24,000 nt of DNA from an uncultured Pseudomonadota bacterium (GTDB lineage Bacteria; Pseudomonadota; Gammaproteobacteria; Burkholderiales; Rhodocyclaceae). Positions within the stretch are counted from its first letter, which is position 1, and each line of letters begins with the position of its first letter. This document shows, one piece after another, positions 13,480 through 17,571 of the stretch. A program made the position numbers and the translations under genes. The notes under the pieces were generated by a model. That model saw nothing but the letters and a program-made list of their open reading frames with translations, searched no databases and was not told the origin of the DNA. Location: assembly GCA_903870055.1 (NCBI GenBank), contig CAIQBG010000016.1:52709-76708 (forward strand), in the 5' to 3' direction.

Positions 13480-15588
13480 ATGGAAAAAACGGTCAAAAAT
13501 CTACCAGAAATCGGGATCCTATGGGCCTTGCGTTGCTTAGTGCGCCTGGATGGCTATAAGCAATTCCTTGCAGAAGATGGTTTTATGGACGATGCACTCG
13601 CCCGTACATTAGGTCTTGGAACCTATATTCCTGAAACTGAGGCAGAAGGGAATATGTTCAACCGACACAAAATGCTTTCGAAGCTGCGCTTCAAATTGAA
13701 ACAGATGGAAGCAGATACAGAACACATCCGCGTGCCGGAGGATTTGGCCGAAAATATTAGCCGCTTACAGTCAATGACGCGGATGTCGGATACTGAATGC
13801 CGTATTCTTGAGTTCGCGATTATGTCGCACGGTATGCGTGACATTGAGCGTATTACTGAACTACCCCCTTGTATTCGTCCGGCCGAAGTCGCTAAACATA
13901 TTGCGATTTATCTGGGCACGCCCGTTAACGACGTGCTCAAAGCGGTTAATCGTCAGTCACTGATGGTCCGCTCAGGTTTGTTCTGCATCTCGGGGAATGA
14001 AACTTTTATGCCCTCACTTTGCGAGCATATGAAGCTGGTGTCATATACGTTTGCCGAACAAATGCTCTCGGCCAATTGTGATTTTGAGCAGATTTTTCAT
14101 GACATGGTTTCGCCAGGCAGAAAATCAACACTGACAATTAATGACTTCTCCCATCTTAAGGATCAAGTAGAGATTCTTTGCCAATACTTATCCCATGCTG
14201 TGAAAGAAAAGAAGCAAGGTGCCAACGTTTTAATCTGGGGAAAGCCTGGTGTTGGCAAGACTGCGTTGGCACAGGTGGTTGCCGATGTTGTTGGTTTGCC
14301 GCTCTATGAAATTTCCAGCGAGGGGCAGGACGGTATGCCTTTGACGGGTGATGAGCGCTTCCGCGCCTACACGGCTGCGCAGTCTTTCTTGTGCCAGAAA
14401 GATAGCCTCTTTGTATTTGATGAGGTGGAGGATGTTTTTAGTGGAAACCGCGTTTTGACCAACCTGTTGGGTGGGCGTGATCGTAATGTGAACGCCGGGC
14501 TGAATAAAGCCTGGATCAACAATACGCTGGAGAGCAATTCGGTCCCGACGATTTGGATCAGCAACTCTGTCCACGGAACCATTGATCCGGCGCACGCCCG
14601 CCGCTTCTCTCTGATAATCGAAATGCCGATTGCGCCACAAGCGCAGCGCCGTCGAATGATCATGGATATGGGTCAGGGTTTGCTCAATGAGGAAACCGTT
14701 AACTTGCTTAGCCAATCTGAGCAACTTGCACCGGCAGTTGTTAGTCGTGCGATTGATGTCATTAAAACGATAGAGCCAGATATGGCGCAAAAGAAAGCAT
14801 CGGCATGGGCTAAGTTGATGGTTAATGCCACCTTGGAAGCTCAGTCACACCAATCGTTGCCTGCAAACGCCTCGAAGAAATTGATGGACTATGATCCGAT
14901 ATTTGTGAATGCCAATTACGATCTTGCCGAGGTGGCCAAAGGCCTGGCACGCGCCAACCAGGGTCGTTTATTGCTCATGGGGCCGCCTGGCTGCGGCAAG
15001 AGCGGTTATGCCGCTTGGTTAGCCCATCATTTAGGTAAACCATTGCATGCAAAAAAAGGCTCAGATTTTCTGGGGGCTTATGTAGGAGAGTCCGAAAAGA
15101 ATATTGCCAAGGCATTCAAAGAGGCAATGGAGGCAGACGCGATTTTACTAATTGACGAGGTGGACTCGTTCCTGGCCAAGCGTAGCAATGCCACACATAA
15201 CTGGGAAGTCTCTTTAGTGAATCAGGTGCTCGTCGAGATGTCGGAGTTTAATGGCTACCTGGTTGCAACGACAAACATCAATGCGGACCAGTTGGATCCT
15301 GCAGCGTTGCGTCGCTTTGATTTGAAAGCCAACTTTGAATACCTGCGCCAGGAGCAGGTGATTGCCATGGCTCAAAAACACTGCGCCACCTTGGGTCTTA
15401 GTGCGTTAGAGACAAACCATCAACAAGCATTGACTCAGCTTCACAAGCTGACGCCCGGTGACTTTGCTGTGATTGAGAGTCAGGCGAAATTCATTGAAAT
15501 TACTTCGACGGATAAGTTAATTGAAGCGCTAACCCGTGAGCATAGCGTCAAAGCCGCGACTAATATGGCTATGGGGTTTATTCATTAG
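13480..15588 (+). CDS. Tandem (D1-D2) classical-clade AAA+ ATPase with an uncharacterised ~240-aa N-terminal domain
   Basis: 702-aa ORF with RBS GAGAGG. D1 has Walker A GKPGVGKT (aa 254-261, nt 14239-14262) and Walker B LFVFDEVED. D2 has Walker A GPPGCGKS (aa 501-508, nt 14980-15003), Walker B ILLIDEVDS, GESEKNIAKAF and PAALRRFD. No TM segment and no protease domain. Confidence 0.85.
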   Translation: MEKTVKNLPEIGILWALRCLVRLDGYKQFLAEDGFMDDALARTLGLGTYIPETEAEGNMFNRHKMLSKLRFKLKQMEADTEHIRVPEDLAENISRLQSMTRMSDTECRILEFAIMSHGMRDIERITELPPCIRPAEVAKHIAIYLGTPVNDVLKAVNRQSLMVRSGLFCISGNETFMPSLCEHMKLVSYTFAEQMLSANCDFEQIFHDMVSPGRKSTLTINDFSHLKDQVEILCQYLSHAVKEKKQGANVLIWGKPGVGKTALAQVVADVVGLPLYEISSEGQDGMPLTGDERFRAYTAAQSFLCQKDSLFVFDEVEDVFSGNRVLTNLLGGRDRNVNAGLNKAWINNTLESNSVPTIWISNSVHGTIDPAHARRFSLIIEMPIAPQAQRRRMIMDMGQGLLNEETVNLLSQSEQLAPAVVSRAIDVIKTIEPDMAQKKASAWAKLMVNATLEAQSHQSLPANASKKLMDYDPIFVNANYDLAEVAKGLARANQGRLLLMGPPGCGKSGYAAWLAHHLGKPLHAKKGSDFLGAYVGESEKNIAKAFKEAMEADAILLIDEVDSFLAKRSNATHNWEVSLVNQVLVEMSEFNGYLVATTNINADQLDPAALRRFDLKANFEYLRQEQVIAMAQKHCATLGLSALETNHQQALTQLHKLTPGDFAVIESQAKFIEITSTDKLIEALTREHSVKAATNMAMGFIH

Positions 15589-16208
15589 CGGTGGCTTTGG
15601 AGCAAGCATAGCGATTTAGCAATTTTCCAGGCAAGGATTGCATCAGTAGGGTCGCCGAGTGTGTCCAGCACGAAGTTGTGTCGTCCATCGCTGCCCACGA
15701 TCCACAAACATTCACCTCCGGCAGCATGAAAGCCTGTTTGGGAGTCGGACGTGCTACAAGAGATCTTTGCTTTGTGGCCAAACCATCCGATACCACTGAT
15801 TGCTTGTGCAGGCCCATTACCAAACCTGCCAATGTTGGGACGAACCACCCCCTTGTCTTTAACAAAGATGCTTTCTTTGTGGTTGGCAGCATTAAAATCG
15901 CCTCGGGCGACTTTAATATGCACGACGTAATTGCTAGGTTCGAGCATTCGTTTGCCGTTAAATAAAAGATCCGTGTTGTTTTGACTGAGCAACCTCTTCG
16001 TGTGTTGTGCCGAAGGTTTAGTCAGGACATAAATGTCCTGACCTTCAGTTTTGATTAGAAATTTAGGCGGATAGCAAAACGAGACCCCAAGTTGTAGATT
16101 GCTGAAGCGTTGCCAGTTTTTTCCGTAAAAACTGCAGTCAGTTGCATTTGCAGTTATGGGTAGTAGCCCCACTAAAACTATTGCTAATGTCTTAAGCCGC
16201 AGATTCAT
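15585..16208 (-). CDS. Secreted protein of unknown function (Sec signal peptide, six Cys in the mature part)
   Basis: 207-aa ORF. Signal peptide MNLRLKTLAIVLVGLLPITANA/TD. Its ATG lies 17 nt inside the 3' end of the upstream FtsH-like gene, and its stop overlaps the stop of the convergent AAA+ gene. Confidence 0.6.
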   Translation of the reverse strand: MNLRLKTLAIVLVGLLPITANATDCSFYGKNWQRFSNLQLGVSFCYPPKFLIKTEGQDIYVLTKPSAQHTKRLLSQNNTDLLFNGKRMLEPSNYVVHIKVARGDFNAANHKESIFVKDKGVVRPNIGRFGNGPAQAISGIGWFGHKAKISCSTSDSQTGFHAAGGECLWIVGSDGRHNFVLDTLGDPTDAILAWKIAKSLCLLQSHR

Positions 16209-17571
16209 TTAGGACACCATATTCAATCGCCATGGATTTGAGATGGCCTTTGTCCAGAATCTTTTGCTTAACAAGACGATCAGCGATTGCCTCAAGAAAA
16301 ACACGGTGAGCCCGAAGTTGGTCAAGAACCACATCGTACTGTCGTGAAAGAAACAAACGGGCAGCATTCTCAATACGATGTTTTTCAGTATCAGAAACAT
16401 CGGTGCCTATTTTCAGTAAAAGATTAGATCCAGCGGTAGATTCATCTTCCATTGTTGGGCTAATGCCATAACGACCAATCAGATCTTTGGCGATGTCTGT
16501 GGCATGACGGAGATCACTGCGAGCGCTAGTGACAGACATATCTTCAATCCCAACAGTTAGTTGCTCGGCAGCACGACCTGCGAGCAGCACCCTCACAAGG
16601 TGGCGTTTGTATTTGTAAATGCCAATGGAAGGTATTGATGCCAGAAATTCATAAGATGCTGAAACCTGCCCCAAAGTGCCTATGGATGGAACAATCCCGG
16701 CGTAATCCGGAATGTTCATGCCGGATGAGTCAACTATGCTGACGAGTGCGTGCCCAGCCTCATGCAGTGCAATACTGTGTCTGAACTCTTTAGACGTGTT
16801 ATTAGGTACGTATTCACCCGTACCGTGTAGTGCAAAGTTAATCAGATCGCCGAACTCCACCTTGCGTTTTTCACGGTAAGCCAGCCGCTTTAGTGCGATG
16901 ATAATCAGGCCTACACGGCGCTCATCGGCAGCTTCGCAATCTAGAACCTGTCCGATTGGCTTAGGATCTGACAGCAAAGAGCTGCCACAAATATCAAGGG
17001 GCAACATCTCGACAAAAGCGAGCCCACGGTCGTGTAGCGATATGTCATCTACAAAGAAACGACGATCAAACGCCCCAGGGCTGCGCAGATCTTCTACTAA
17101 GTCGCACGGATCGTCACCGTAAGTAACAAATACCAGGTGTTTATCCGCAGGAATTTGAGCCATGAGTTCGGCAAATTTTTTATGGAAGGCCTGGATCTCA
17201 TCGGCATTCGAATGATCTTTGGTATCGGCAGACCAGATACCCAATGGCATCATGACTAGCGTGGGATCGAGAATCTCCGTGAATCCATTGGCAAAGAATT
17301 CAAAAATTTTATCTGCTGCCAATTCCCTTACTTGATAGCCGGATGCTTGTGCAATTTGATGAATGATTTTTTTGCTGTACTCCTTGTTGTCGTTCACAAT
17401 CATCGCAGCACGCCCAACAATTTCCCAGTCAATGGTTTGAGGTACACAGTTACTCGCCATATTGGCGAGTTCAATTGCCCAGGCTTTAATGGGGCGAAAC
17501 CGATCCGGGTTGCTCCACCCGGTTACCATGGGTTCGCTGGCAACCCGCATGTTTTGAAATGTTGATTTCAT
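16192..17571 (-). CDS. Soluble FtsH-like protein: degenerate (Walker A/B-less) AAA module fused to an intact M41 zinc-peptidase domain
   Basis: 459-aa ORF with strong RBS GGAGAAGG. M41 motif ALHEAGHAL (nt 16750-16764), third-ligand Glu in GRAAEQL, and AAA remnant LRSPGAFDRRFFV (compare LRPGRFDRQVVV of FtsH). MIVNDNKEYSKK and LVMMPLGI occupy the Walker A and Walker B positions. No TM helices. Confidence 0.85.
   Translation of the reverse strand: MKSTFQNMRVASEPMVTGWSNPDRFRPIKAWAIELANMASNCVPQTIDWEIVGRAAMIVNDNKEYSKKIIHQIAQASGYQVRELAADKIFEFFANGFTEILDPTLVMMPLGIWSADTKDHSNADEIQAFHKKFAELMAQIPADKHLVFVTYGDDPCDLVEDLRSPGAFDRRFFVDDISLHDRGLAFVEMLPLDICGSSLLSDPKPIGQVLDCEAADERRVGLIIIALKRLAYREKRKVEFGDLINFALHGTGEYVPNNTSKEFRHSIALHEAGHALVSIVDSSGMNIPDYAGIVPSIGTLGQVSASYEFLASIPSIGIYKYKRHLVRVLLAGRAAEQLTVGIEDMSVTSARSDLRHATDIAKDLIGRYGISPTMEDESTAGSNLLLKIGTDVSDTEKHRIENAARLFLSRQYDVVLDQLRAHRVFLEAIADRLVKQKILDKGHLKSMAIEYGVLNESAA

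Follow-up and report, generated by a model that had tools for sequence, protein, structure and literature searches.

Among described systems, the regulons that most resemble the locus considered here are those of WYL-domain transcription factors; DriD recognises the site ATACGAC-N7-GTCGTAT in promoters that have no -35 element, the site overlapping the position of that element at a fixed distance from the -10 box (PMC13004042), and DdaA binds CGWCA-N5-TGWCG and controls DNA-damage and anti-phage genes, the small DdaA regulons of Alcanivoracaceae and basal Moraxellaceae including an "ftsH" (PMC12392091). FtsH-type ATPases are also found in two described conflict-related assemblies: IetAS, a plasmid-stability and anti-phage system made of the AAA ATPase IetA and the subtilisin-like protease IetS (PMC10924106), and the MoxR-vWA-"FtsH" ternary conflict systems (Kaur et al. 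2020), in which MoxR and vWA partners accompany a tandem FtsH-type AAA protein with an inactive N-terminal copy (PMC7159879). The locus lies in a stretch of 24,000 nucleotides (nt), hereafter the window, of contig CAIQBG010000016.1 (positions 52,709 to 76,708, forward strand; assembly GCA_903870055.1) from an uncultured Rhodocyclaceae bacterium, where a tandem AAA+ ATPase (AAA702) and an FtsH-like protease of the Peptidase_M41 family (M41_459) are encoded by neighbouring convergent genes; in the public annotation of this 76.9-kb contig, the former is named "SpoVK/Ycf46/Vps4 family AAA+", the latter "cell division protease FtsH". With a probability of about 0.6, these two genes are separate convergent units of one regulon driven by a WYL activator, in a defence or DNA-damage island of a Fluviibacter-like betaproteobacterium, an island that this reading takes to be horizontally acquired.

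Four perfect AGAC-N7-GTCT palindromes are present in the window; all of them fall in the island and all are located 42-45 nt 5' of start codons. Unrelated loci totalling 2.08 Mb gave a background of 0.0101 such sites per kb, so that 0.24 boxes are expected in the window, and the Poisson estimate for at least four is ~1e-4; a palindrome search with an 8-nt spacer returned none, the actual spacer being 7 nt. The same architecture, AGAC-N7-GTCT followed at exactly 11 nt by a -10-like hexamer and devoid of a -35 element, describes 26 sites in eight loci (homologous loci carry L numbers). When the ~100 nt upstream of M41 are aligned for seven loci, the inverted repeat is conserved regardless of the gene lying upstream (HExxH_111, McrC, WCX or others), and a box stands at the same spacing 5' of the AAA702 homologues of L081, L082, L087, L088 and L181. 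Boxes also precede, in relatives, the operon ending in the WCX regulator and the operon ending in DUF2779; in L081, a box is found upstream of an 88-residue gene that itself precedes the WYL-WCX gene. The M41 gene of L087 retains its own box and -10 element downstream of McrC and is therefore an independent unit.

No AGAC-type box was found at the M41 or ATPase genes of distant loci. Perfect (T)GCGAC-N7-GTCGC(A) palindromes occur there 5' of M41 in L176 (7944), L003 (1928) and L001 (1113) and 5' of the ATPase in L175 (6861) and L172 (7850), with one mismatch in L178, L170 and L089 and in weaker form in L173 and L174; as sequences, these distant boxes match the published DriD site. Further boxes are present before neighbouring island genes in distant, unrelated Proteobacteria loci.

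The candidate regulator predicted to bind the boxes, by analogy with DriD and DdaA, is the WYL-WCX transcription factor orf_360, recognised by the Pfam WYL (30.5 bits) and WCX (43.9 bits) models and by the PADLOC WYL model (86 bits); no profile used in these scans detected a winged helix-turn-helix (wHTH) domain. Of 20 M41-family loci, 15 have a WYL-WCX gene, often together with a DUF2779 nuclease, as do seven of eight distant ATPase loci. The WYL-WCX gene lies directly upstream of M41 in L082, L088, L180, L181 and L003, and adjoins M41 or is close to it in L090, L092 and L177; in the DNA examined at five M41 loci (L001, L002, L004, L084 and L087, the L087 stretch ending inside DUF2779), no WYL gene was found. 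The association with WYL regulators is thus general, and the pairing of AAA702 with M41 is restricted to one island lineage.

This restricted pairing is apparent in the related loci. The tail-to-tail AAA702-M41 arrangement is kept in six of seven of them (L081, L082/83, L087, L088, L180 and L181; 50-98% identity), the M41 proteins being 98% identical in L081, 69% in L087, 54% in L088 and L180, and 52% in L082/83 and L181. Where sec_207 is the last gene, the gap between the ATPase and the end of the M41 operon ranges from -60 to +47 nt; in L088, L180 and L181, one small gene separates the two. The rest of the island is rearranged among these close loci, with different flanking genes and at least five different arrangements: the WCX regulator has been relocated to directly upstream of M41 in L082, L088, L180 and L181, and a complete McrBC pair is inserted, on the same strand, between the HExxH gene and M41 in L087 (14174-17411). 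The exception is L179 (58% identity), where the 6.8 kb upstream and the 3.3 kb downstream of M41 contain neither the ATPase nor a homologue of sec_207; a WYL-DUF2779 block is located upstream and other genes downstream.

Further away, the two families were sampled in 12 distinct M41 loci (30-37% identity; L001-L004, L084-86, L090-L093 and L176-L178) and eight ATPase loci (32-41% identity; L089, L090 and L170-L175). The earlier note had proposed that the two genes make up a single machine, an idea that would be undermined if their homologues were found independently of one another; that is largely what was found, as an ATPase of the AAA702 family occurs in one of the 12 distant M41 loci and an M41 protease in one of the eight distant ATPase loci, the same locus (L090) in both counts. 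In L090, the ATPase (34% identity) diverges from M41 at a distance of ~0.8 kb and is directly followed by a SIR2 gene. As each gene mostly occurs alone in other genomes, an obligate two-part protease is not supported. The partners found in operons with the distant ATPases are SIR2 (L090 and L175) or DUF2779-WYL (L170 and L172): plasmids of Rhodoferax and Diaphorobacter carry AAA-DUF2779-WYL, Pantoea has AAA-WYL with two hypothetical genes and a SNF2 gene after it, and Sphaerotilus has WYL-AAA-SIR2 beside BREX-2. The co-directional ATPase operons, with DUF2779 and WYL, WYL alone or SIR2, span 7971-12585 in L170, 7887-12621 in L172, 6929-10027 in L174, 5772-9933 in L175 and 5992-9086 in L090. 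A PADLOC run on these AAA702-family operons with exchangeable putative effectors returned no complete system, the only match being a partial one to IetA.

The features of the window are collected in the table below. The stop codons of the convergent genes share two nucleotides (15586-15587), common to the TAG of AAA702 (15586-15588, forward strand) and the TAA of sec_207 (complement of 15585-15587), and the start of sec_207 overlaps the stop of M41_459 by 17 nt. The overlap is as the earlier note had described it, and so is the lack of a terminator between the two units: a consensus scan of the junction returned no terminator-like site, and the RNA of neither strand folds better than shuffled sequences (z = 0.68 and -1.17). 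At ~13.4 kb, the G+C content falls from ~55% to ~48%. The genes upstream of the island are origin-proximal core genes: the atp operon, ubiE and a DUF971/GBBH-like gene, together with open reading frames (ORFs) whose layout resembles that of gidA, gidB and parAB. The UbiE protein falls in a cluster (at least 90%) with Fluviibacter proteins. The DUF971/GBBH-like ORF (147 residues; 13012-13455, reverse strand) overlaps the AAA702 box with its first 11 codons, and its Pfam domain begins only at residue 38; its true start may be Met24 (~13386), in which case a 93-nt intergenic region would hold the AAA702 promoter.

Features of the AAA702-M41 island in the window (positions in the window; +, forward strand; -, reverse strand)
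Feature	Position	Strand	Description
Palindromic box AGACGGAATGAGTCT	13424-13438		42 nt upstream of the AAA702 ATG; -10-like GAGCAT 11 nt later
AAA702	13480-15588	+	702 residues; monocistronic (ORF list)
sec_207	15585-16208	-	207 residues; final gene of the M41 operon
M41_459	16192-17571	-	459 residues (ORF list)
Palindromic box AGACGCTTGGTGTCT	17613-17627		42 nt upstream of the M41 ATG; -10 TAGATT 11 nt later, no -35
HExxH_111	17645-17980	-	Small exported protein with C-terminal HELRHC motif; boxed
Palindromic box AGACAAATCTAGTCT	18025-18039		45 nt upstream of HExxH_111
lipo_378	18050-19186	-	Predicted lipoprotein, lipobox LSAC
Palindromic box AGACAATATATGTCT	19151-19165		~43 nt upstream of the probable lipoprotein start
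DUF2779 nuclease-like gene	20383-22276	-	Split into overlapping ORFs of 161 and 486 residues
orf_218	22236-22892	-	Conserved island protein
orf_360, WYL-WCX transcription factor	22918-24000	-	360 residues; own promoter outside the window

AAA702 has two Pfam AAA domains (D1 and D2), both with intact Walker A and Walker B motifs; domain scans found no protease domain, and the protein has no transmembrane segment. In a 25-member family alignment (38-84% identity), the invariant elements of D1 are the Walker A motif GKPGVGKT (residues 254-261), the Walker B motif FDEVED (313-318, with D314 and E315), N362 and R374/R375; those of D2 are GPPGCGKS (501-508), IDEVD (558-562, with D559 and E560), the sensor-1 residue N599 and R611/R612. 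Only D2 contains an aromatic pore loop (YVG, 534-536; (Y/W)VG across the family). The closest family models for D2 are those of IetA (PADLOC, 119 bits; NCBIfam NF042959, 98.8 bits against a cut-off of 510), the PADLOC IetA models covering residues 493-671 only. The N-domain (first 220 residues) is mainly helical in the AlphaFold2 (AF2) model, at a predicted local distance difference test (pLDDT) score of 88.8, and this model has no fold match in the PDB at E <= 0.001. Near the C-terminus (residues 697-702, window 15568-15585), G699 and F700 are invariant family-wide and stand 0-4 residues from the end; they could form a docking tail, but the GF is equally conserved in AAA702-family ATPases that have no M41 neighbour. 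In plasmid and phage collections, the family is present on several plasmids and in one "phage" record. A full-length homologue of 33% identity is encoded at 17452-19476 of MT835507.1 ("Bacteriophage sp.", human faecal sample, unannotated).

M41_459 is a soluble homologue of the cytosolic region of FtsH. Residues 259-446 match Pfam Peptidase_M41 (PF01434) with 74.7 bits against a cut-off of 29.9, and the zinc site (HEAGH plus an aspartate; H270, E271, H274 and D353) is invariant in 29 homologues. The P-loop position is occupied by GRAAMIVNDNKEYSK and the Walker B position by LVMMPLGIW, which lacks an acidic pair; Walker A, Walker B and the aromatic pore loop are absent from M41_459 and 28 homologues, and the FDRRF motif (D169 and R170) is retained in the family. 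The family profile matches both domains of solved FtsH, and its alignment with AFG3L2 is a single stretch (residues 70-449). The AF2 model (pLDDT 89.2) superposes on the whole cytosolic part of FtsH, YME1 and AFG3L2 (~455-485 columns, template modelling score 0.6-0.65); the N-terminal half is thus modelled as a degenerate AAA module. No transmembrane segment was detected, the maximum 19-residue hydropathy being 1.31, and the AAA-like domain begins at the very start of the protein. The FtsH equivalog model TIGR01241 scores 61.6 bits, below its cut-off of 600. These Pfam searches, alignments and models uphold the central observation of the earlier note, a tandem AAA+ protein with intact ATPase motifs and no protease domain adjoining an M41 protease without a working ATPase; from the motifs, AAA702 would be ATPase-competent and M41_459 protease-competent.

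The M41_459 family is small yet distinct: in a set of 1.84 billion representatives, it forms ~276 clusters at 50% identity (E <= 1e-30). It was not found in plasmid or phage collections, where the matches were to ordinary FtsH, and the literature searched contains no paper tying Peptidase_M41 to defence systems. Sampling of genomic contexts by the HEAGH pattern returned mostly ordinary FtsH, family members making up four of 80 genome loci and four of 80 metagenome loci, and the M41 context sample is therefore small. Many listed family members have ~600-675 residues (e.g., P0054, P0060, P0084, P0091 and P0027) owing to an N-terminal extension of ~160 residues, in which Pfam PF10722 is found in several cases and DnaB_C (PF03796) in one; such extensions could be substrate- or signal-recognition modules.

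The preferred reading, that of separate units in one regulon, would work as follows. Each unit would have its own boxed promoter (AAA702; M41-sec_207; HExxH_111; the lipoprotein gene; in relatives, the WCX and DUF2779 operons). By analogy with the described WYL factors, single-stranded DNA produced by DNA damage or phage replication would be sensed by the WYL domain, and the wHTH-WYL-WCX protein would then bind the boxes and turn on all units together. M41_459 would be a soluble, probably hexameric zinc protease that cuts unfolded or specifically presented substrates; as its AAA ring would be a structural remnant, it would cleave without hydrolysing ATP itself. AAA702 belongs to a far larger family, made up of stand-alone tandem AAA+ ATPases of the unfoldase type that travel with WYL regulators and variable partners, whether a DUF2779 nuclease, SIR2 or this M41 protease. 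AAA702 may pass substrates on to M41 in the close lineage, but neither family requires it. The regulon has at least four further units, and co-regulation is therefore not specific to the AAA702-M41 pair.

Some points weigh against this reading. For orf_360, sequence comparison with the WYL proteins of solved structure gave no match, which leaves its subfamily uncertain; the link between regulator and boxes is drawn from the analogy with DriD and DdaA and from co-occurrence. BrxR and CapW are WYL regulators of defence systems that act as repressors, and a box over the -35 position could repress instead of activating. Several of the distant loci are short contigs, so the absence of the partner holds within 3-10 kb only. 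That the AAA702-M41 junction persists in the close clade, although everything around it is rearranged, may, moreover, reflect more than co-residence. This last point leads to the split-FtsH explanation, which follows the earlier note and in which hexamers of AAA702 would unfold substrates and feed them into a hexamer of M41_459; the two would form one inducible, ATP-dependent protease in two parts, with a role as effector in defence or abortive infection. Its favourable elements are the apparently complementary activities of the two proteins, the junction kept in six of seven close loci across at least five island arrangements, the recurrence of the pair in L090 at ~33% identity and in another orientation, an operator common to both genes at identical spacing, the precedent of IetAS with its FtsH-like AAA ATPase and separately encoded protease (PMC10924106), and the invariant G699-F700, which could dock. 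However, an ATPase of the AAA702 family is missing from the DNA fetched for 11 of 12 distant M41 loci and for L179, and no other AAA+ protein adjoins M41 in those for which genes were called; seven of eight distant ATPase loci are devoid of M41, and the operon partner of the ATPase is SIR2 in L090 and L175 and DUF2779-WYL in L170 and L172; the C-terminal GF is no less conserved without M41; and the AAA702 and M41 genes never share one operon. The two AAA modules are also not specifically similar, hhalign giving a probability of 0.35% between the M41 pseudo-AAA and the AAA702 family, and a common origin of both modules, which would be the simplest basis for a mixed ring, was rejected for want of support. 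In favour of the earlier proposal stand the complementary motifs, the close-clade junction and the common operator, and an obligate pair is not supported, the families being usually separate; a split or regulated proteolytic machine is therefore doubtful overall, though it stays a live minority reading. A combined version, in which a WYL activator sensing single-stranded DNA would induce both units and the AAA702 ring would dock on, or intercalate through the FDRRF arginines with, the nucleotide-free pseudo-AAA ring of M41_459, giving an FtsH-like machine from two genes that would act as an inducible defence or DNA-damage effector, the same ATPase serving SIR2 or DUF2779 effectors elsewhere, is unlikely.

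Two other explanations leave AAA702 and M41 functionally apart. M41_459 might be a regulatory protease that cleaves the WYL-WCX factor or some other island-encoded repressor or antitoxin, with no involvement of AAA702; CapP-CapH and PprI/IrrE-DdrO would provide models, WYL-WCX is the most constant neighbour of M41, and the lack of an ATPase of its own would suit site-specific cleavage, but the characterised WYL factors DriD, PafBC and DdaA are switched by binding of single-stranded DNA instead of proteolysis (PMC13004042, PMC12392091), M41 has a box before it in the manner of a target gene, and five M41 loci are without a WYL gene in the DNA fetched; this is quite improbable. As for an adjacency without meaning, two unrelated cargo genes abutting at the edge of the island and palindromes arising by chance or as remnants, defence islands are indeed mosaic, as seen from the McrBC pair inserted next to M41 in L087 and from the shuffling of genes between loci; yet the four perfect boxes against 0.24 expected, all at promoter positions, and the conservation of box positions in seven further loci (50-98% identity) make it barely credible. 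The locus is best described as a probable WYL-activator regulon or island with an uncharacterised proteolytic and ATPase cargo. The defence setting suggested by the earlier note is supported by the defence-type genes found around the pair and its relatives (McrBC, SIR2, a PD-T4-3-like GIY-YIG protein, BREX-2, a type IIG restriction-modification enzyme and toxin-antitoxins), although no PADLOC system or model matches the protease. That the pair is not a named system agrees with the same PADLOC run, in which the ATPase gave a partial match to IetA only.

Several of the other island genes are predicted to encode exported proteins. The sec_207 protein has an N-terminal signal peptide and several cysteines and is predicted to be exported; homologues (31-57% identity) follow M41 only in L082, L087, L088, L180 and L181. 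A universal role of sec_207 as partner of M41 was rejected, since the distant loci have a different downstream gene (a membrane protein, lipoprotein or soluble protein). At L001 (403-1026), L178 (9443-9991) and L176 (9386-10006), the neighbour of M41 is a lipoprotein or a protein with several transmembrane segments, unrelated to sec_207, and the M41-adjacent lipoproteins of L001 and L178 are 30% identical to each other. HExxH_111 has a 125-residue paralogue at 20002-20379; the two are ~37% identical, both exported, and both end in HE(L/I)RHC.QG..H, and they have no Pfam, NCBIfam or PADLOC match. The 125-residue copy (window 20021-20366) is found in L087 and is absent from L081, and the distant locus L090 encodes, near M41, a homologue of HExxH_111 with 47% identity. 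The true start of lipo_378 is probably near 19108, by comparison with the 352-residue gene call in L081. The break in the DUF2779 gene is due to the loss of 209 nt at a junction near 21830-21835, as seen from the intact gene of 684 residues in L081 (98% identical); in the literature searched, DUF2779 appears only in surveys, which assign it to the RNase H-like superfamily. A homologue of orf_218 sits between the sec_207 homologue and the ATPase in L088 and L180.

In terms of significance, the M41_459 family amounts to a compact FtsH-derived protease family in which the ATPase has been lost and the zinc site kept, and which has no description in the literature searched; it raises the mechanistic question of how an FtsH-type chamber is fed without a motor of its own. 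DriD-type boxes before this family and before a large tandem AAA+ family in many Proteobacteria would extend the regulons of WYL activators from repair genes to proteolysis and ATPase genes of islands. Should ATPase and protease cooperate in the close lineage, they would constitute a natural split FtsH, and IetAS would be joined by a second case from such islands in which an AAA ATPase works with a protease encoded by another gene.

By comparison with known systems, the locus departs from the two-part AAA+ proteases (ClpXP, PAN/Mpa-20S and Cdc48-20S) in that co-occurrence of unfoldase and peptidase is confined to one clade and L090; as to their docking motifs (the IGF loop or C-terminal HbYX), the invariant GF of AAA702 might play such a part, but its distance from the end varies (0-4 residues) and it is conserved also without an M41 neighbour. 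M41_459 resembles FtsH, YME1 and AFG3L2 in its zinc site (HEXXH...D) and in a fold that spans their entire cytosolic region, but it lacks the transmembrane and periplasmic parts, Walker A and B and the pore loop. The FtsHi proteins of the chloroplast Ycf2-FtsHi motor, which are among the top structural matches of M41_459, are likewise FtsH paralogues that have lost one activity, although with the opposite polarity: FtsHi retains the ATPase, has lost the protease and works in mixed rings. The MoxR-vWA-FtsH systems likewise combine a conflict setting with an FtsH-type AAA protein in tandem form; D1 of AAA702 is, however, intact, and the window contains no MoxR or vWA gene. With IetAS, the locus has in common a classical FtsH-like AAA ATPase without a protease domain beside a separate protease; it differs in that the match of AAA702 is limited to D2 within a tandem AAA protein with a different N-domain, and in that the protease is M41 and not S8 (no S8 domain or IetS match was found among the island proteins scanned) and the genes converge instead of forming an operon. 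A further comparison is with DriD of Caulobacter and DdaA of Moraxellaceae. Here, the outer base of the box in the close clade is A/T (AGAC...GTCT) and not that of CGAC, the targets (tandem AAA+, pseudo-ATPase M41, exported proteins and DUF2779) are not those described, and orf_360, with no detectable match to solved WYL proteins, is predicted by analogy to bind and activate. Alike in both are a factor with WYL and WCX domains encoded in the locus and a 15-bp palindrome of the form xGAC-N7-GTCx at the place of the missing -35 element, at a fixed distance from the -10 box and in front of several separate units; the published regulons of this type, moreover, mix DNA-damage and anti-phage genes.

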